IMG/VR virus record: IMGVR_UViG_3300042988_001200
Direction: 5' to 3' (one strand)
Length of the DNA: 64,000 bases
Source of the DNA: a virus
Taxonomy: Duplodnaviria > Caudoviricetes
Shown: in pieces, positions 3 to 61,695 of the stretch
Layout of the letters: each line of letters opens with the position of its first letter
Position numbering within the stretch: the stretch's first letter is position 1
Notes under the pieces: generated by a model
Databases searched by the model: none
Seen by the model: only the letters and a program-made list of their open reading frames with translations
Told to the model about the DNA's origin: nothing
Position numbers and translations under genes: made by a program

Positions 3-3000
3 GTAGATACTCCAGAACCATATATCCCTACTTATGAAATCTATAACTCTATATATGAACAAGGTAACTCTATCCTTAATCAATATTCAATCTCTAAAGG
101 TTTAATCCCTATAGAGATATATGATAACTGCTATGAAACTTGTTATCAAACAGAGACTATAGAGTTAGATAGAGAGTATTCATTTGTTATAAATAAGTCC
201 ACTTGCTATGAAGAGGGGGTCTATGAGAATTGTTATACAGAGGGTTATTTTGTATATTGGCAGACTTCTTTTATATATGAAGAATCCTGCTATGACTCTT
301 GTACAGTTAATAGTTTATTTCCTTTATTCTTCTTTACTAGAAGACAGGATACATGGTTATTAGAAGATGTCTTTTGTAAGGATATAAATACACCTACTAG
401 ATATATAGATAATGATGGTCATCTTATTAATATTGAAGTATCTAGTTGTATAGATAAAGAACCATTACTCTGGAATGATGATTTATTAATAGACCAAGAC
501 TGGTTAGAGTCTGATGGTAGTAGCTGCTTTGATAACTGCTATGAAAAGAGATATTACTATTATGATGAGGATAGGTATGTATACCAAGAAGGAGTTTATG
601 AAAGTGGTGTATATACTAAAAGAGCTCTTCTAATGTCTCTTCCCTTTATGGATGTCCAATGTCCAACCTGTAATATATCTTCTAATTGTTTAGTATCTTT
701 CTTAGGGAATATTATTCTAGAGCATCATTATAATTTAGAGGTAAGGGGAATGACAAGAGTACAGGATTACTTATATAGTAAATCTAGACCTCTAGAGATA
801 TTAGATTCTTGTTGTACTAGACCCTATGTAGTTAATGACCAGCTCGTAAGGATTAATGGAGATGTTATAGAGATATTCCAAGAGGGTTTATTAAAAGATG
901 ATTATCTTTATTCATTAGATATTGGATACACTATAGAGAGTACCAATGAGTTTATCCCTATTCAATCTAATGTTCCTATATCCCTTAATGGTTTCTACTC
1001 TTTATCTAGCTATATACCAGAGGGGATTAAGACTTTAATTCTATATAAATCTAATTATTACTTTAAGAAGGAAGTAGTAAGATTCTATGGAGCTTCATCT
1101 TCTAATCAATTTCTTATTCAGGATTCTTTATCTTTATTTAATAGTGTAACTAATACAACTACTATTGAGGATATAAGTATATCTCTTATATTGTTACTAT
1201 TATCTTCTTATAAAGAGTCTAAACCTTGTTCTACAGTTATATCTTTTAAGTCTTTACATCCATATATAAAGTCAGTTATAGATAATAATCTAGACATTCT
1301 ATCTACATTAATTGATAACTCTAATGATAAAAGAAGGGGTTCTATACCTAAGCAAGTAAGGTCTAATACTAAGCCAGAACATATATATGATGATAGTTAT
1401 TATCTAGAAAAGAGGGTTATTACTTGTTATGAAGAGGGGGTTTATAGTAATAAATGCGACTTCTTATGGGATGAATCCTTGATTATTGGGGATGAAATGT
1501 ACTGTTTATCTAGTTGTTTTAAGGAATCTATACTGGATTTCTCTATTAATAGAGAGGTGGATAATAGGTCTATAGCCTGGTTATTACTTGCCTATCTAAC
1601 ATATACAGAGGTTATTAATACAAATAAATATCAGTCTTCTATTGATTTATTATATGAATATCTCATTTCAGAAATAGATTATACTAATAAATTTATATAT
1701 AAAGGTTACTCTCATTCTGATATATATAGTAATTCCACTAGGTTAGAACTGATAGATACTTCCACTAACATAGCTGTTTGTATAGCCCTACTAAAGCATT
1801 ATTCAGTAACATCTAACTCAATATCCCTACTTTATGCCTCTAAACTAAAGAGATATATCTATCAATACCTTTATTCTAGAGATGATAACTTATTCATGGA
1901 TGAAGGTTACTTTACTTTAGATAGTAATTTATATGGTCTATGGCTATCTTTAGAAGTTAATGAAGCCCCTGCTGTAGAGACTATATTAGACTTCTTTACA
2001 ACTAGTCTTAATGAAGTATCTACTAATGTATCTATAAAGATAGATACTATAGATAATGAAGATATTCTTTTATTAGATAACTCCTATATCTATACAAATA
2101 TAGAATCTATATCCTTAAGAAATAATATAAAGGTTAATAATCTTTTATACTATCTGTTTAACTACTCTTTACAACAAGGCTATACCCACTCCTTCTTTAT
2201 ATTTAAAGATACAAGTCTAGATAGTAATATAGGTATTGCTAGTTGTTTATCTGATAGTTTATTTGAACATGAGTTGTTTAGAACTTATGGATATGAAGAT
2301 ATAGAAGTTTTAGAGACTAGTGAAGCTCTAATAGAAAATAGATTAAGGGATATGATGCCTATAGGATTTGACTGGTTTAGTAGAGAATCTTTAACTAGAC
2401 AAGGAAATATAGGTAATCTCTTAGGCTCTGTAAGTGGAAGTTTAGCTCTTAATAATGTTTCTATAAAGAGAATAAAGGATTCTATATCTTTAACTAATAG
2501 TAGGACTTATTCTATTAAGAGATGGGAACAGGATTTGAAAATGGTTAGATGGGAGTCTGAGACCTATACAGAATACAAGGATAGAGTGAGAAAGTTTATA
2601 AATAAGCCGTATATTATAAATCAAGCTATTCCTTATTTATTAAGTTTATATAAAATTGATGTAAAAAAACAATGGGATTGGAGTAGTAATATTACAAATA
2701 AATATAATTCTTTGTTCTTCTCTACTTCTAATGCTTATATTCAAGAAACAGATACAGTTATTAACACTCATATACTAGTAGTTAATTTCCCTATAACTCC
2801 CTCTCTTTATAGGTCTATAGAAGAGGTTAAACCTATAGGAACAAAGGTTATATTTGATTGGCAGTTAGATATAGAAACTTGTTTAATAGAACAAGAGTTA
2901 GAACCCTCTATAGTAGACCTTTCTACTGTTCAGAGAATACCTTCTTATTTCATAAATGAAGTATGTTGTAGTAGTAATAGTTGTAGAGTCTTAATGAAGA

Positions 3001-3128
3001 TAGAACTAGAGTTTGCTGTTCCCTACCCTCTTTATTTAAATAAGGATTCTATTCTAGGTCTAGAACAAGAAAGTGATAATCTAACTATTATAAGGGCTAA
3101 TAATCTTTATAGTTATTTTTATAAGTAA
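3..3128 (+). CDS. Baseplate wedge-like virion protein (C-terminal Mu gp48/YmfQ/P2 gpI-like region) with a central alpha/alpha-toroid-like region; 5'-truncated
   Basis: The frame is open without stops from base 3 (VDTPEPYIPT...) into the tracked ATG at 633, so the gene starts before the window (at least 1041 aa). The C-terminal IENRLRDMMPIGFDWFS...RWEQDLKMVRWESETYTEYKDRV resembles wedge proteins. It lies directly upstream of baseplate and DUF4815 genes. Confidence 0.6.
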   Translation, partial: VDTPEPYIPTYEIYNSIYEQGNSILNQYSISKGLIPIEIYDNCYETCYQTETIELDREYSFVINKSTCYEEGVYENCYTEGYFVYWQTSFIYEESCYDSCTVNSLFPLFFFTRRQDTWLLEDVFCKDINTPTRYIDNDGHLINIEVSSCIDKEPLLWNDDLLIDQDWLESDGSSCFDNCYEKRYYYYDEDRYVYQEGVYESGVYTKRALLMSLPFMDVQCPTCNISSNCLVSFLGNIILEHHYNLEVRGMTRVQDYLYSKSRPLEILDSCCTRPYVVNDQLVRINGDVIEIFQEGLLKDDYLYSLDIGYTIESTNEFIPIQSNVPISLNGFYSLSSYIPEGIKTLILYKSNYYFKKEVVRFYGASSSNQFLIQDSLSLFNSVTNTTTIEDISISLILLLLSSYKESKPCSTVISFKSLHPYIKSVIDNNLDILSTLIDNSNDKRRGSIPKQVRSNTKPEHIYDDSYYLEKRVITCYEEGVYSNKCDFLWDESLIIGDEMYCLSSCFKESILDFSINREVDNRSIAWLLLAYLTYTEVINTNKYQSSIDLLYEYLISEIDYTNKFIYKGYSHSDIYSNSTRLELIDTSTNIAVCIALLKHYSVTSNSISLLYASKLKRYIYQYLYSRDDNLFMDEGYFTLDSNLYGLWLSLEVNEAPAVETILDFFTTSLNEVSTNVSIKIDTIDNEDILLLDNSYIYTNIESISLRNNIKVNNLLYYLFNYSLQQGYTHSFFIFKDTSLDSNIGIASCLSDSLFEHELFRTYGYEDIEVLETSEALIENRLRDMMPIGFDWFSRESLTRQGNIGNLLGSVSGSLALNNVSIKRIKDSISLTNSRTYSIKRWEQDLKMVRWESETYTEYKDRVRKFINKPYIINQAIPYLLSLYKIDVKKQWDWSSNITNKYNSLFFSTSNAYIQETDTVINTHILVVNFPITPSLYRSIEEVKPIGTKVIFDWQLDIETCLIEQELEPSIVDLSTVQRIPSYFINEVCCSSNSCRVLMKIELEFAVPYPLYLNKDSILGLEQESDNLTIIRANNLYSYFYK

Positions 3129-3166
3129 TATTTATTTATAATATTATTAACCTATAAAAAGTTAAT

Positions 3167-4273
3167 ATGTTTGATTTAATAATTGTAGGGGCTGGACCTA
3201 GGGGTATAGGTTTAGCCCTTCAAGCTATAGAGAGAAGTTTATCTGTACTAATAATAGACCCAGAACCTTTATCTACTTGGAGGAATATCCCAATAGATAT
3301 AAATATGAGAAGTCCTATAGGATTTGATTTAGTATCCTTTATGCCAGAGTATAGACAATATAGTTTATCAACTTATCTAGGTTCTTATCAAGAGTTTAAT
3401 AATCAAGAGGATATAGAAAGGTCTACGAGTGTAGTAACTAGACAGCACTTTATTAACTATATGGAGTTTATGTGGAGTAGAGTTTTATCTATATGTAGTT
3501 ATAAACAGGACAAGGTTATTAACATATGGCCTAATAAAGTTATGACTACTAAGGAAGTATATAGAGGTAAGAATGTGGTTATAGCCTATTCCCCTATTAA
3601 GGCTAAGAACCCTAATTGGTTGAATCTAGAGTTAAAGAGAAAGCTAGTTACTGCTAAGGATATAGATTCTATAAATAACTCTCTTATCTGGGTTATAGGT
3701 AGTGGACAAAGTGCCGCAGAGTATGTTTATTCTTTATGTTCTAAAGGTAATACAGTCTATTGGTTTAATAAGAAAACTCCTAGAGTAGACCAGTACCCTG
3801 CGCCTAGTTATAATCATTGGGGTTATAAGAGTGCTCTAGGCCCTTACTATAGGAGTATTAAAGAGAATAAGGAGGCAGCTATGAGATATATGAAGGATAT
3901 AAAGAGATGGCAACCATCTATTACTCCAGATATAGATACTAAGTTATCTACAGTTAAAGATAGATATAAGGTTATACTAGATAACCCCTCTTCTATAGAG
4001 GTAAATATGGATTATATTTTTCTATGTAATGGAGTTAACTCTAGTGTTGATTTAGTACCATTAGCCTTACCAGTAGATAGACATATTTATAACAATGATT
4101 TACCTCTTTTACATACAGGATTTAGAAGCTCCTTATCTAACGAAAGGAGTGGAGGGAAGGGGGGTTATATCTTTACAGGGTTACTGGCTTCTTTATATGA
4201 TGGACCTAGGCAAGGAAGTTTAATCTCTATAGGGTTAACATCTAAAGAGATATTAGATAATATTAATTTATAA
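3167..4273 (+). CDS. FAD/NAD(P)H-dependent oxidoreductase, lysine/ornithine N-monooxygenase (IucD/SidA/PvdA)-like
   Basis: N-terminal FAD Rossmann motif DLIIVGAGPRG, an MRSP motif, a second dinucleotide motif WVIGSGQSAAE, and C-terminal FTGLLASLYDGP. Confidence 0.8.
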   Translation: MFDLIIVGAGPRGIGLALQAIERSLSVLIIDPEPLSTWRNIPIDINMRSPIGFDLVSFMPEYRQYSLSTYLGSYQEFNNQEDIERSTSVVTRQHFINYMEFMWSRVLSICSYKQDKVINIWPNKVMTTKEVYRGKNVVIAYSPIKAKNPNWLNLELKRKLVTAKDIDSINNSLIWVIGSGQSAAEYVYSLCSKGNTVYWFNKKTPRVDQYPAPSYNHWGYKSALGPYYRSIKENKEAAMRYMKDIKRWQPSITPDIDTKLSTVKDRYKVILDNPSSIEVNMDYIFLCNGVNSSVDLVPLALPVDRHIYNNDLPLLHTGFRSSLSNERSGGKGGYIFTGLLASLYDGPRQGSLISIGLTSKEILDNINL

Positions 4274-56727: not shown

Positions 56728-57046
56728 CTATATTACTAGGTAAAGAACACATTATAATGGGAATTTGATTTAGATAACAATAACTATAAGGAATTATATA
56801 ATCATAGTTCAGGGGTTTATTTTTTCCTATCCTTAAAATAATAACTAAATCTTTATCTATAAAACTATAATTAAGTTTTATAGATTTATTTATTATTTTA
56901 TCTATATCTATAGGATATGAGTTGAATAAACTAGAGCTTATGGTTATATCCTTTTCATTTATCTTAGGATAAGTTCCTTTTATGATTTCTATAACATCTT
57001 TATATTTAACTTTAAGGTGGGAAGGGTAGAATAGACCTACATTCAT
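56720..57046 (-). CDS. Hypothetical protein
   Basis: 108 aa with short overlaps at both ends. Confidence 0.55.
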   Translation of the reverse strand: MNVGLFYPSHLKVKYKDVIEIIKGTYPKINEKDITISSSLFNSYPIDIDKIINKSIKLNYSFIDKDLVIILRIGKNKPLNYDYIIPYSYCYLNQIPIIMCSLPSNIDA

Positions 57047-58200
57047 ACTAGATAAAAAGAGGGACTAATTAAACCAGTTGGGTGTCCGTTGAAATTAATA
57101 GAAGGATTAATAACTAACCATATAGATTCTAGAGTATTAATATCTACTTCTGTATTTTCTTCATGGGATACAAGTTTAAGAGATAAATTATGGTTATTAA
57201 GTTTAAGTGTGGATAGAAGTTTAATTAGAAAAGAACTATTTATATCTATATTCTTCCATTGTCCTGTTAGAGATAGAAGTTGTATAGCTGCTGGTTCAGT
57301 GGAATATTTCCCTTTAATATTTAATTCTCCATTAGATAAAGATAGAGATAGAACATCAATAGGAGATAACCCAGTAGATTGCCAATCGCATGCAGCTAGT
57401 AATTGTTGATATGATATCTGTATCTCTCCTAGTGGTTGTAGGTCCATTAAGTAATTATTAATTTTATATTCACTACTTAGACTAGGAACAGACCTGAATA
57501 TAAAGTTAATTCTCTCTGTTACTATTTGAAATATATCAGGATACTGAGATTTATATAAAGAAAAGTGTTCACTATTCTTTATAAAATCAGCTATATACCT
57601 CTTGATAATAACCTCTGTAGAGTTAGAAGGATTGTCATCTAAGTTCTGTGTATATCTAATCATAGAGTTTCCTAATGGGTCTCTACACATAAATCTAATA
57701 GTAGAAGACTCTATATTTATATTAATAAGAGCCTCTTTATTAGAGAAAGAGACAATGTTATTAAATAGAAAGGGGGTCTCTACATTATCTATAATAATAG
57801 GTTCCCAATCTATCTCCTTAGATAAAGGGCTATCTTCAAAGGGAACTCTCTCTTTAGAATATTGATAAGTAGGCTTTTGGATAGTACCTAATGACAATAA
57901 ATCAAAGGTAATAGTATCCTTATTCCCAATAATATATAGCTCTACATCATTAGGTAATCTCTTTACTAGTTCGGATATATAGTTAGATTGAACTAATATA
58001 TGCCCCTCTTCTATACAGCTTCCAGTTAGTTTAAGGATTACATTATGACTATTAGAGTTAACTACTTGTGCAAATATCCCATCCTTTGTACTCTTAATAG
58101 CTATACACAACTCTTCAATACAACTATTCATATCATTAACTAAAGGTAATAGCTTAGCTAAATAGTTCTTTAGTTGAGTAGATGTTGTTTGAATCTTCAT
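57043..58200 (-). CDS. dnaN: DNA polymerase III beta sliding clamp
   Basis: 385 aa; EEGHILVQSNYISELVKRLP and IDINSSFLIKLLSTL match DnaN patterns, and dnaX lies nearby. Confidence 0.75.
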   Translation of the reverse strand: MKIQTTSTQLKNYLAKLLPLVNDMNSCIEELCIAIKSTKDGIFAQVVNSNSHNVILKLTGSCIEEGHILVQSNYISELVKRLPNDVELYIIGNKDTITFDLLSLGTIQKPTYQYSKERVPFEDSPLSKEIDWEPIIIDNVETPFLFNNIVSFSNKEALININIESSTIRFMCRDPLGNSMIRYTQNLDDNPSNSTEVIIKRYIADFIKNSEHFSLYKSQYPDIFQIVTERINFIFRSVPSLSSEYKINNYLMDLQPLGEIQISYQQLLAACDWQSTGLSPIDVLSLSLSNGELNIKGKYSTEPAAIQLLSLTGQWKNIDINSSFLIKLLSTLKLNNHNLSLKLVSHEENTEVDINTLESIWLVINPSINFNGHPTGLISPSFYLV

Positions 58201-58210
58201 ACTTTACCTC

Positions 58211-58666
58211 TTATAAATACTCTTTTAACTCTTCACTTAATACCGATTCATCTTGCTGAGATTGCTCATATTTAATTAAAGAGAAGTTCTGTATTATAGA
58301 TGAACAGTCTAGAATAATAGATAAATGTTTATTAAACTCTTCTATTACTTGTTTACATTTCTTATTTATTTTTTCTATATCTATATAATTAAAATGGGAA
58401 ATAGCTACTATCTTTATTCTTTCATCTTCTAAATTGAGAGATAGAGTAGCATTACTAGGTCTTAATGTTAATAAAGATATAAGTAATGGGGTGGGAATAT
58501 TATACTTAAGGTCTATTAATGGTAGTTCAAAGTATGAGTTTTCTTCATTTATATGTATAGATATTACATATTGGTTATCTAATAACTTAATAACTTGTTG
58601 GTTATTAGAGGATTCTATAGAGAATTTATAGTTATTAAGAGAGGAAATAATAGATTGTAAATCCAT
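58211..58666 (-). CDS. Hypothetical protein, possible YbjN/CesT chaperone-like fold
   Basis: The alpha-beta3-alpha-beta2-alpha residue pattern is suggestive only. Confidence 0.35.
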   Translation of the reverse strand: MDLQSIISSLNNYKFSIESSNNQQVIKLLDNQYVISIHINEENSYFELPLIDLKYNIPTPLLISLLTLRPSNATLSLNLEDERIKIVAISHFNYIDIEKINKKCKQVIEEFNKHLSIILDCSSIIQNFSLIKYEQSQQDESVLSEELKEYL

Positions 58667-58674
58667 ATTTATAT

Positions 58675-59601
58675 TTAGTGAATCCAGGATAAACCTATAT
58701 TAACAGAGGCTTTAGAAGGGAAATCCTCATTAATTAAAGGAGAAAGTAGATAGGATTGAGCTTCCTCCATTAAGGATTTAATAAGATTAGCTTTATTCTT
58801 TACTTCCTCTGGTATAACAATCTTTAATGTATCTTCTTTTTCCCCTTCTATAACATTCATATTAGGTGGGGGTCCTGGAACTAATAGATTAATCTCATCA
58901 TGTACACATATAGAAGCTGGAAAGATAATATCTTGTAATCTAGGGTCTTCTTCTATATATTTAAGTCCTAACTTAATCATAATATTGCCAGTACCCTGGA
59001 TAATAGCATTAGGGCCCTTTCTACCTATAGCATTAGCATTAGAAGCTCCCTTAGCATTATCCTCTCCTACAAATATTAATCTATTACCTACAGTTCTTAT
59101 CCTATTAGTAATCTTAGAGGACTCTGAATGATAGTCTAACCACTTCTTTAATCCAGGGAACTTCTTAAAGTAATTATTAAGAACGACCTCCGCCTCTTCT
59201 ATAGACATTCCAAAGTCTGATGCAAATCCCTCTGCTCCTTTTCCATATATAGTAGAGAAGTTAATTATCTTACCTAACTGTCTATAGTTAATACCATCTA
59301 AACCTCCCTTAGCCATCTTAGCTACATTCCAGGGTTCTATACTCTCTAAAGCCTTATTTAATCCAATGGCAGCAACTAAATGTAAATCAGTATAAGGATT
59401 CTCATAACTCATACCAGTATCATCTATTAAATAAGGTCTCTCCCTTTCTTCTTTAAATACATCTAGGAGAGCTGAGCATTTATACTCATTAAATACAATA
59501 GCTGATACAATCCTTAACTCTTGACCAGAGAAGTCAGCAGATACCCAATAGTAACCCTCTGGAGCTATAAAAGCGTTTCTTAGATTAACTTTATATTTCA
59601 T
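58675..59601 (-). CDS. polA: Family A DNA polymerase, C-terminal part (palm and fingers)
   Basis: Motif A SADFSGQELR, DLH, motif B RQLGKIINFSTIYG and motif C VHDE. Confidence 0.9.
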   Translation of the reverse strand: MKYKVNLRNAFIAPEGYYWVSADFSGQELRIVSAIVFNEYKCSALLDVFKEERERPYLIDDTGMSYENPYTDLHLVAAIGLNKALESIEPWNVAKMAKGGLDGINYRQLGKIINFSTIYGKGAEGFASDFGMSIEEAEVVLNNYFKKFPGLKKWLDYHSESSKITNRIRTVGNRLIFVGEDNAKGASNANAIGRKGPNAIIQGTGNIMIKLGLKYIEEDPRLQDIIFPASICVHDEINLLVPGPPPNMNVIEGEKEDTLKIVIPEEVKNKANLIKSLMEEAQSYLLSPLINEDFPSKASVNIGLSWIH

Positions 59602-59774
59602 ATCTTTAAATAAAGGGGTTATCTGATAAATAAGGTAAATCAGCTACATTATCTACTATAGAGCTTATTACCATATTTGTAATCTTAGATTTTAATATAT
59701 ATAACCCCCTTTTATTTGGCATTAAAAATAACTCTACCTTACAATTTTTATCCTCATGTATCTTATATTTCATA
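59591..59774. repeat. 12-bp direct repeat TTATATTTCATA at 59591-59602 and 59763-59774
   Basis: Identical copies (reverse complement TATGAAATATAA) span the start codons of the mini-ORF and of polA-C. Confidence 0.8.
59606..59773 (-). CDS. Unannotated 55-aa ORF between the two polA halves
   Basis: MKYKIHEDKNCKVELFLMPNKRGLYILKSKITNMVISSIVDNVADLPYLSDNPFI*; starts 3 nt after the polA-N stop and ends 4 nt before the polA-C ATG. Confidence 0.6.
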   Translation of the reverse strand: MKYKIHEDKNCKVELFLMPNKRGLYILKSKITNMVISSIVDNVADLPYLSDNPFI

Positions 59775-59776
59775 AT

Positions 59777-61189
59777 CTATCTAGTTTTATTTATAAGTTC
59801 TAATGGGATATTAACAATAACAGATTGTCTACCTGATACGGCTAATAGATTAGTTTTATCTTGATTAGATGCTTCATCTTGAGAGGATGTCATTCTACCG
59901 GTACTAGCACCTACTGAGTTAATAGGATAGTGTACAGCCTCTGTATTATCATCTATAGCTGATAGATATTTAGAAGCTTCTCTTCTTAGAACCTCTTTAT
60001 TCTTATAGTTAATATATTCTTTAACTAGAAATATAAGTTTGTTTAGTTCTTCCTTACTTTCTAATTCTTTATATCTATTAGAGTTATCTAGATCTATATC
60101 TATTTCACTAGGTTCTTCCTCTGTATCTATAGATTTCTCTATTTGTTCTAAGTCCTTAAGTAGAGTTTCAATAGAGTTCTTCTGAGCATTGGTTAGTTTT
60201 AAACCTGTTTGCTTTAATTGAATATTAAATAAATCTACTAGTTTCTTACTATTATTAAGAACTGTAGATATCTCATTAGGTATAACTATTTGTCTTACTA
60301 ACTTATCTTCTATAAGATTAAGGGAGTATTGAATAGGTAATTTAAGAATCTTACATAGACTAAGAATAGACTTATTAATAGAACTTTCACATTCTTTAAC
60401 AATCCCTTTAAGAATATGAGTGTTCATATAACACCCATTATATTCAGATAGAGATAAGATAGGAACCATCTTTTGGTCTAATAAGAACACTTCATGCTGA
60501 TTAAGTTCTATAGATAAATCCTCAAATAGTCTATACCCTTCTATAACAATAGAGTAAAGGGGTTTATTCTTATAAGGGTTCCAACTACCTTTAGGGGCTC
60601 CTACATCTATAGCTGAGTATATAAGCTGTTCTTTAGTTAGATTAGTCTCTTCCCAATTACTAGTTTGCAGAGATTTATCTAGGACTAGACCATATCCTCT
60701 AGAGTTATTAAAATAGTCCTTAGCTAGAGTATATAGACTAAATCCCTTAGCTCTAGCTGCTTTCCACCCGGTAGATACAGCATGAGAACACATAGCTGTT
60801 TTAGAGTCCTTTATATTTCTAAATTTAATATTGAAATTAGATAGTAACATCTTATATTCAAAGGAAGCACTATGAGCTATTAGAGTTATATCCTGTAGAT
60901 GTTTATTATAAAGAGTCTCAATAAAGAATAGGCTATTAGATAGACCTATAGATTTAATATCAATAACCCAGGGTATAGCATTCTCCTCTATGTTTATTTG
61001 TAATAGGGCTATAAGAGAGTTATGAGGATTTAGTCCTTTATTCTTCCCTGGTTTATTAGGATTACCATAAGTTTCTGTGTCTATACAGGCATATCCTTTG
61101 TAGGAATTAATAAATGAATCTAGTTCTTTTAATTCATCTATATCCTTAATCAAATAGAAATCTATAATATCCGACTCAATTAACTTCAT
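59777..61189 (-). CDS. polA: Family A DNA polymerase, N-terminal part (3'-5' exonuclease, thumb and TGR motif)
   Basis: ExoI IDTET, ExoII-like HSASFE, ExoIII YSAID; ends shortly after ASTGRMTSS...NL. Confidence 0.9.
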   Translation of the reverse strand: MKLIESDIIDFYLIKDIDELKELDSFINSYKGYACIDTETYGNPNKPGKNKGLNPHNSLIALLQINIEENAIPWVIDIKSIGLSNSLFFIETLYNKHLQDITLIAHSASFEYKMLLSNFNIKFRNIKDSKTAMCSHAVSTGWKAARAKGFSLYTLAKDYFNNSRGYGLVLDKSLQTSNWEETNLTKEQLIYSAIDVGAPKGSWNPYKNKPLYSIVIEGYRLFEDLSIELNQHEVFLLDQKMVPILSLSEYNGCYMNTHILKGIVKECESSINKSILSLCKILKLPIQYSLNLIEDKLVRQIVIPNEISTVLNNSKKLVDLFNIQLKQTGLKLTNAQKNSIETLLKDLEQIEKSIDTEEEPSEIDIDLDNSNRYKELESKEELNKLIFLVKEYINYKNKEVLRREASKYLSAIDDNTEAVHYPINSVGASTGRMTSSQDEASNQDKTNLLAVSGRQSVIVNIPLELINKTR

Positions 61190-61227
61190 ATTTATTAATA
61201 ATACTAAAGGTAGTAGTAATAAAACTT

Positions 61228-61695
61228 ATGGAAAATGAAATAAGAGGTATAGGATTAAACTCTGCTGGGTTTATGGAATTATTATGTGGAGCCTGTGATA
61301 TTAGATTAATCATAGATATGAAGTGCTGTGAGATTAGATTAATAGTTGGGACTATATGTAGAACAGTTATTGTTTGGTCTGGAGAGGAGGCTGTTAGAGA
61401 TATAAATAAACTAACAGTAATATTAAAACAAGCCTTTGCTTTAGGGTGTGTTACTTTAAGTATTATACCTTGTAGTTCTAGTGTTTGTAGAAATGCTTCT
61501 ATGGTTCAAGGGGCTGTATCAACTATTGACCCTTTACTTCAAAGTATTAAGACTCAGATATATACTTCTCTTCTTACTCAACTTAATTCTTTATCTAATT
61601 GTTCTTCTGATGACCCTATACCTCCCCCAATCGATCCATCTAACCCTGTTACCATTAATCCTAATATAGGTTCATACAGGTCTTCCTGTTGTTAA
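61228..61695 (+). CDS. Cys-rich hypothetical protein
   Basis: 155 aa with many Cys including a terminal CC; divergent from polA-N. Confidence 0.6.
   Translation: MENEIRGIGLNSAGFMELLCGACDIRLIIDMKCCEIRLIVGTICRTVIVWSGEEAVRDINKLTVILKQAFALGCVTLSIIPCSSSVCRNASMVQGAVSTIDPLLQSIKTQIYTSLLTQLNSLSNCSSDDPIPPPIDPSNPVTINPNIGSYRSSCC

Follow-up and report, generated by a model that had tools for sequence, protein, structure and literature searches.

Phage genes for polymerases and for nucleotide metabolism that are split and yet work without splicing are an established phenomenon. In Aeromonas phages 25 and 44RR, the family B polymerase (PolB) gene 43 is divided into 43A and 43B by an untranslated spacer and works without splicing (PMC2988022), and the nrdA gene of Aeh1 is split by mobE, an intact homing endonuclease, with terminal tails at the cut being needed for activity (PMC3045599). 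The PhiKZ replicase was shown experimentally to be a stable complex of DNAP-N, DNAP-C and the clamp-like Rhc subunit (PMC13648687). Among family A enzymes, the polymerase of P-SSP7, one of the clade B T7-like cyanophages, is likewise encoded in two open reading frames (ORFs; PSSP7_017A/017B) (PMC12695635), and loop inserts such as Insert 2 of Pol theta, Insert 2 of the SP15-like enzymes and the thioredoxin-binding loop of T7 gp5 add contacts with DNA or with partners (PMC9962433, PMC13697223). Here we analyze a family A DNA polymerase gene located in a 64,000-nucleotide (nt) stretch of viral DNA (IMG/VR record IMGVR_UViG_3300042988_001200; referred to as the window), which is divided just before catalytic motif A into an N-terminal half (PolA-N) and a C-terminal half (PolA-C), with a mini-gene of 55 codons between them.

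The explanation that we favor, with a probability of roughly 60%, is a working family A replicative polymerase of two or three chains, whose gene is inherited in pieces and whose intervening mini-protein is a polymerase-associated module. PolA-N (exonuclease, thumb and TGR/NLQ motif) and PolA-C (motifs A, B and C) would be translated as separate chains from adjacent cistrons and would reassemble non-covalently. The mini-protein would most likely be a third piece of the enzyme, a detached module of the hairpin tip at which the gene is cut, because it is found only between split halves and its tail resembles an in-frame motif of single-chain relatives; it may pack on the enzyme or recruit a replisome partner such as the phage beta clamp. 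The stop-start spacings of 3-4 nt would reflect ordinary termination-reinitiation coupling, and an RNA stem and a 12-nt repeat seen at the junction would be incidental.

A family A polymerase encoded in pieces

The preliminary description of this DNA had read a polymerase divided into two ORFs with a 55-codon ORF in the 175-nt gap between them, and all three are indeed present in the ORF listing, in head-to-tail order on the minus strand (Table 1). The halves jointly carry the hallmarks of a family A (Pol I type) enzyme, namely a 3'-5' exonuclease domain and a polymerase domain with motifs A (DxSxxE), B (RxxxKxxNFxxxYG) and C (HDE); they do not form the single polypeptide of that family, a stop codon and the gap lying between motif 2 and motif A. 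In PolA-N, the 3'-5' exonuclease domain PF01612 covers residues 33-196 (E 6.6e-11) and phrog_31382 matches end to end (E 2e-31). PolA-C matches PF00476 (positions 138-342, E 6.8e-29) and, end to end, phrog_35406; it aligns to Klentaq from IRRAFIA onward and has DFSGQELR as motif A, RQLGKIINFSTIYG as motif B and VHDE as motif C. The PHROGs collection already splits the enzyme, with one separate family for each half. Ratios of nonsynonymous to synonymous substitution rates (dN/dS), calculated against lineage L003, are 0.22 for PolA-N and 0.10 for PolA-C, a sign of strong purifying selection on both halves. The junction is identical in contigs of two other studies (run X4 spans 59491-59812 and run X3 spans 58622-59693), hence the gap is real DNA and not an assembly artifact.

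The same layout of N half, small ORF and C half was found in at least nine lineages of the Ma-LMM01-related clade, the window included. The small ORF encodes 51 amino acids (aa) in Ma-LMM01 (gp180/gp179/gp178) and its metagenomic variants, 54 aa in L003 (whose N half is 71% identical to that of the window), 53 aa in L004, 125 aa in L085, 73 aa in each of L106 and L108, 109 aa in L109, and 64 aa in L111. Two lineages of the clade have a contiguous polymerase gene, so that a comparison of relatives, as proposed earlier, finds both contiguous polA and other inserts at this site. In the polymerase tree, split and fused enzymes form one clade (support 100/100); the split lineages all share one replication module (X, clamp, dUTPase and clamp loader), and the polymerases sharing the split are only 25-35% identical. 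Sequence comparison indicates that the split is an old, inherited multi-piece enzyme shared with Ma-LMM01, and not a recent insertion.

The break had been thought to fall at a conserved-core position of the palm. Instead, the alignment and an AlphaFold2 (AF2) model of the fused relative P0005 place it between the TGR/NLQ motif and motif A, where a variable beta-hairpin offers a permissive surface site at its tip. In contiguous relatives (My-WqHQDG and the partial relative L086), the stretch from the NLQ motif to the LRxAF strand reads as a short hairpin, KVVTLKDGRKTSLRG. In the alignment, all split N halves close with a stretch resembling a strand and then a short segment of mostly acidic character, a pattern present in all split lineages and in fused P0005, and all split C halves have a few residues ahead of the [LMI]Rxx[FI] strand. 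Residues G427 and R432 of the last conserved motif of PolA-N are invariant in the alignments. The last strand of PolA-N and the first strand of PolA-C would, according to the alignment and the model, rebuild this hairpin in trans. Insert 2 of Pol theta presumably lies in this very loop.

Table 1. Features of the split polymerase locus and of the adjacent genes (coordinates in the window)
Feature	Coordinates	Strand	Remarks
PolA-N	59777..61189	-	470 aa; 3'-5' exonuclease domain, thumb, first palm motifs (TGR...NLL); stop TAG
Last conserved polymerase motif of PolA-N	59831..59911	-	GASTGRMTSS...DKTNLLAVSG; equivalent of Pol I TGRLSS...PNLQNIP
PolA-N tail, SVIVNIPLELINKTR	59780..59824	-	putative first strand and short helix of the hairpin preceding motif A (counterpart of strand 443-447 and helix 449-453 in the P0005 model)
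Mini-gene	59606..59773	-	55 aa; 55-codon ORF between PolA-N and PolA-C
Mini-protein tail motif, VADLPYLSDNPFI	59609..59647	-	matches family signature [VI]AD[LI]PxYSDxP
RNA stem, 5' arm	59701..59717	-	present; not supported as functional
RNA stem, 3' arm	59608..59622	-	overlaps conserved tail codons of the mini-gene
PolA-C	58675..59601	-	308 aa; rest of palm plus fingers
PolA-C head, MKYKVNLRNAF	59569..59601	-	putative second strand of the hairpin (alignment; strand 483-487 in the P0005 model)
151-aa gene	58211..58666	-	function unassigned; between PolA-C and clamp in all relatives (synteny)
Pol III beta-like sliding clamp homologue	57043..58200	-	positional counterpart of Ma-LMM01 gp176 (synteny)

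The small protein between the halves

The mini-ORF is a genuine gene. When the sequence is shuffled, an open frame this long arises in the gap with P = 0.004, and the gap ORF lengths are improbable in shuffles for all eight lineages tested (P from <0.0002 to 0.02). The L003 copy aligns with the window copy without gaps at 56% identity, and the dN/dS of 0.32 against this relative is inside the range of the neighboring genes. Both the gap sequence and the mini-peptide are single-copy in the genome, with no paralogue. The 3' end of the mini-gene includes 23 nt (59624-59646, GTAGCTGATTTACCTTATTTATC) that L003 shares without a change, against ~70% identity over the remainder of the ORF; constraint on the tail motif may be the cause, or else an overlapping signal for expression of PolA-C.

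Judged by its sequence, the mini-protein belongs to a small protein family that is present in at least five lineages and found only between split PolA halves. The homology of the family emerged as more lineages were added, pairwise searches having seen none beyond L003. Comparing single mini-ORFs with one another by BLASTP and hhalign gave no significant match (hhalign E 0.0088, probability 4.6%), a first scan of viral contigs with the single protein as query gave no match, and phmmer against 1.8 billion representatives returned only the L003 copy and one weak match in five stretches of a 636-aa protein (P0009, E 6.6e-4). Neither a Pfam, PHROG or usable ESM Atlas match nor a nuclease or DNA-binding domain was found for the mini-protein; a by-eye likeness of its hairpin to GIY-YIG was dropped, there being no such Pfam match. 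The small ORFs of the window, L003, L106, L109 and L085 can nevertheless be aligned (alignment A13), with L111 being marginal, and share a signature that consists of the hairpin N[KR]xGx[FY]xL and then the tail [VI]AD[LI]PxYSDxP; the tail segment of the window protein is ADLPYLSDNPFI.

Family membership was assessed by searching leave-one-lineage-out hidden Markov models (HMMs) against 15,726 ORF fragments, where the omitted member was the top non-training match. E values were 6.6e-7 for L106, 1.7e-6 for L109 and 4.7e-4 for L085; for the window lineage, L003 (E 3.7e-4) and the window itself (E 0.012) came ahead of all non-family fragments. The carriers of the family form a subclade of the polymerase tree (support 91/93), which points to vertical inheritance of the mini-protein together with the polymerase.

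The AF2 model of the mini-protein alone (predicted local distance difference test, pLDDT, 80.8) contains a four-strand beta meander at residues 2-40. The pLDDT is 86-90 at residues 1-40 and lower, about 50-70, in the conserved tail, which would fit a docking peptide. Fold searches with this model gave generic beta-meander and propeller-blade matches only (Foldseek E >=0.68; VIA Z <=5.4), and no fold family is claimed.

The best clue to the function of the mini-protein is a motif at the same structural site in uncut enzymes. Two 800-aa single-chain relatives, P0005 and P0006, have a 45-residue in-frame insert at the cut position. In the P0005 model (pLDDT 84.4, predicted template modeling score 0.85), the surrounding region comprises strand 443-447, helix 449-453, the insert, and strand 483-487 leading into motif A; 10-residue blocks of the insert have pLDDT of 76-92, with the motif itself at 76-81. 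This motif, SLPGYNLPK, lies in frame in the loop of the fused relatives and resembles the mini-protein tail. The pattern [DST][LIV]P.Y.{2,3}PK was found only in the family members and at residues 458/460 of P0005/P0006, which lie within the loop insert, among 954,000 residues of six-frame translations; the P0005 and P0006 inserts are not reached by the family HMM at E <10. From the shared motif and the model, the mini-protein looks like a detached version of a polymerase module.

Several observations count against a multi-chain polymerase with an associated module. We infer, from the genes, both the assembly of the chains and any binding of the mini-protein. The leave-one-out search for L111 gave E 0.67, which makes its family membership only marginal, and the 0.49 chance matches expected overall for the relaxed tail pattern overstate its significance, since the pattern was relaxed after P0005 had been seen. 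The small ORFs of L004, L108 and Ma-LMM01 (gp179) are not detectably in the family, hence a family member is not obligatory for a split enzyme; gp179 was not detected by the family HMM at E <10, and a search of the whole Ma-LMM01 and My-WqHQDG records with this HMM gave no match, a result of little weight. The My-WqHQDG lineage has neither the split nor the insert. Finally, the tree resolves little of the inner branching of the clade, and the split may have arisen once or repeatedly, with either the split or the fused form as the ancestral state and either order of split and fusion events. A further-reaching proposal makes the gap protein of 54-125 aa an obligatory third subunit beside the active site, with its DLPxYSDxP tail docking on the palm or tethering the beta clamp, and sees in the clade a record of one-chain/three-chain interconversion; we regard it as tentative, at somewhat under even odds.

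Mobile elements, translation signals and rival explanations

The polA genes of this clade are a target of mobile elements. In the Ma-LMM01-like variants L011-L013, L089 and L090, an insert of ~510 nt lies in motif A of PolA-C between the Ser and Gln codons (DFSS/QELR). In L011 (~2994-3503), it is matched by the group I intron model RF00028 over the full model length with 37.4 bits and E 1e-7, below the gathering score; the exon ends with U, the insert ends with G, and removal of the insert restores the reading frame. A weak match to HEARO RNA in the same insert (RF02033, 3029-3224, 29.6 bits, E 5e-4, far below gathering) is probably due to chance. The gap of L004 (2940-3302) encodes a 53-aa resolvase-type HTH_7-like peptide (PF02796, 24.3 bits, just above the cut-off). 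The L004 insert is larger and may be a mobile element; the peptide is followed by a second ORF, which is not PolA-C and runs off the 3.3-kb contig.

These elements keep alive an alternative that we consider unlikely but deserving of attention, in which the two-chain enzyme is functional and the small ORF is unrelated to it, being cargo or the decayed remnant of the mobile element, a homing endonuclease or an intron, that originally split the gene, and maintained for reasons of its own. The gap ORFs do differ among lineages, as illustrated by the resolvase-type peptide and further non-polymerase ORF of L004 and by the 73-aa ORF of L108 and the Ma-LMM01 ORF, both of unrelated sequence; the intron inside motif A, as well as the published cases of nrdA split by mobE (PMC3045599) and of gene 43 in Aeromonas phages 25 and 44RR (PMC2988022), also speak for it. 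However, no nuclease match (Pfam, PHROG) was obtained on the gap ORFs of the window, L003, L004, Ma-LMM01 (gp179) and L085, those of L106, L108, L109 and L111 being unscanned, and the window mini-ORF has neither a DNA-binding domain nor a paralogue in its genome. In at least five lineages its family has descended together with the polymerase and is under purifying selection, and for an unrelated passenger the in-frame counterpart of its motif in single-chain relatives, modeled at pLDDT 76-92, would be hard to account for. The hypothesis put forward in the preliminary description, a new small insertion element that splits genes without inactivating them, is very improbable, and largely refuted by the comparison with relatives, when it is stated as a recent insertion with a 12-nt target duplication and an mRNA stem that gates PolA-C translation via the mini-ORF. 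The features on which it was built do exist in the window genome: an exact 12-nt repeat, TATGAAATATAA, is present at the starts of the mini-ORF and of PolA-C; the stem GGGGGUUAU/AUAACCCC belongs to the minimum-free-energy fold of the junction; and only 3 nt separate the PolA-N stop TAG from the mini-gene ATG and 4 nt the mini-gene stop TAA from the PolA-C ATG, as in coupled cistrons. Their interpretation did not hold. L003 has the same insert without a duplicated 12-mer; a third copy of the 12-mer occurs elsewhere in the window genome, and it begins with ATGAAA, tied as the commonest ORF start of that genome (17/162 ORFs), so the duplication is statistically unremarkable. The 211-nt junction is no stabler than shuffled sequence (z -0.23, with 80/200 shuffles at least as stable), and both stem arms are changed to non-pairing bases in L003 (junction z +0.06). 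Among the lineages, stop and start can overlap by 26 nt or lie up to 236 nt apart (the distances are 19 and 2 nt in L003 and 75-236 nt in L085 and L109), hence the tight spacing of the window is not a clade-wide rule; from mini-gene to PolA-C, the 4 nt of the window and the 2 nt of L003 are compatible with ordinary reinitiation. The single-copy gap and the sharing of the split by such divergent polymerases likewise disagree with an insertion element, the ORF being a selected family that follows the polymerase tree.

A single chain, whether produced by splicing of the RNA or of the protein, by read-through of stop codons or by frameshifting, is in our view very improbable, even though PolA-N and the mini-ORF share a frame in the window, with only TAG-ATT between them, and a single frame contains PolA-N, the 125-aa family member and PolA-C in L085 (1557-4400). 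These shared frames are judged to be chance, as the frame relations differ in every lineage; several different stops separate the ORFs of L085, and TAG is a common stop in the window genome (31/149 long ORFs). The variable spacing and the differing frames argue against programmed frameshifting, read-through and a clade-wide coupling device. An Rfam search at E up to 5 over positions 58000-61500 detected no intron or ribozyme model and gave two chance-level matches (SNORD81 and K10_TLS) inside PolA-C and outside the gap, whereas the same search detected the group I intron of L011. A split intein would comprise IntN of ~100 aa and IntC of ~35 aa ending in His-Asn followed by Cys, Ser or Thr; the extra residues beyond the conserved alignment amount to 15 in the N tail and ~6 in the C head, and the tails have 10-25 residues with no intein blocks, which is far too short for a split intein. 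The only Pfam matches were PF01612 on PolA-N and PF00476 on PolA-C. Rfam and Pfam agree with the earlier observation that the gap holds neither an intein nor a group I core, and of the initial picture the two separate chains from tightly packed cistrons stand, while the device of RNA stem and duplicated start does not. The interruption itself is all that speaks for a decaying pseudogene in a phage that uses the host polymerase, a scarcely credible reading given dN/dS of 0.10-0.22, the retention of all catalytic motifs, and a layout conserved across deep divergence in synteny with the clamp and clamp loader.

Genomic context, significance and comparison with described systems

The phage genome containing the window is 171.9 kb long with 31.6% G+C and is that of a large freshwater phage related to Ma-LMM01, the nearest named relatives being Microcystis phage Ma-LMM01 and Microcoleus phage My-WqHQDG. 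In the protein database, the PolA halves are on a 204,120-base contig, compared with the 171,917-base genome used here; the difference may mean that this genome is incomplete or that the longer contig is a concatemer. Downstream of PolA-C, the 151-aa gene has no family match and a dN/dS of 0.475 against L003; every relative, the phages with fused polymerases among them, has such a fast-evolving gene, of 137-276 aa, between PolA-C and the clamp. It is a candidate replisome accessory. The clamp homologue has a weak phrog_29400 match and a dN/dS of 0.21 against L003. A scan of the region for promoters and terminators found nothing beyond what shuffled sequence gives.

Split replicative polymerases indicate to what extent an active site tolerates division without loss of function, and can inform the design of split or modular enzymes; in this clade, one family A enzyme occurs naturally as one chain, as two chains and possibly as three. 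In GenBank, the Ma-LMM01 halves are separate products, '3'-5' exonuclease' and 'DNA polymerase'. Because halves are annotated in this way in Ma-LMM01-type cyanophages, phylogenies built on polA and counts of genes can be misled where phages of bloom-forming cyanobacteria are concerned. Three things appear to be new: that the cut immediately precedes motif A, that it is conserved across a clade, and that a micro-protein family with a counterpart in uncut relatives is tied to it.

The closest described system is Ma-LMM01 itself (NC_008562; also MaMV-DC and relatives), which belongs to the same clade and has the same split point with a 51-aa ORF between the halves. This ORF, gp179, shows no detectable relationship to the window mini-protein and overlaps the N half as well as the C half. 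The downstream genes are the same as in the window, including the clamp gp176, which was identified as a Pol III beta homologue (PMC3201878). We found no discussion of the split in the literature consulted, the 2008 genome description of Ma-LMM01 being outside our search. In P-SSP7, the cut parts the exonuclease domain from the polymerase domain (177 + 423 aa) and the ORFs overlap with no gene between them, whereas here it falls inside the polymerase domain, before motif A. The PhiKZ replicase belongs to family B and follows another split logic, and its third subunit is a large RNase H-clamp protein and not a 55-aa peptide encoded in a gap. The loop inserts of other family A polymerases are in frame within one chain, on palm or thumb loops, while the putative module of the window is on a separate ORF. 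With gene 43A/43B and Aeh1 nrdA, the locus shares an essential replication enzyme in two cistrons, a short insert and, as proposed here, reassembly without splicing. It differs from these PolB and ribonucleotide reductase genes in that the piece between the halves is a conserved non-nuclease micro-protein with a motif counterpart in uncut relatives.

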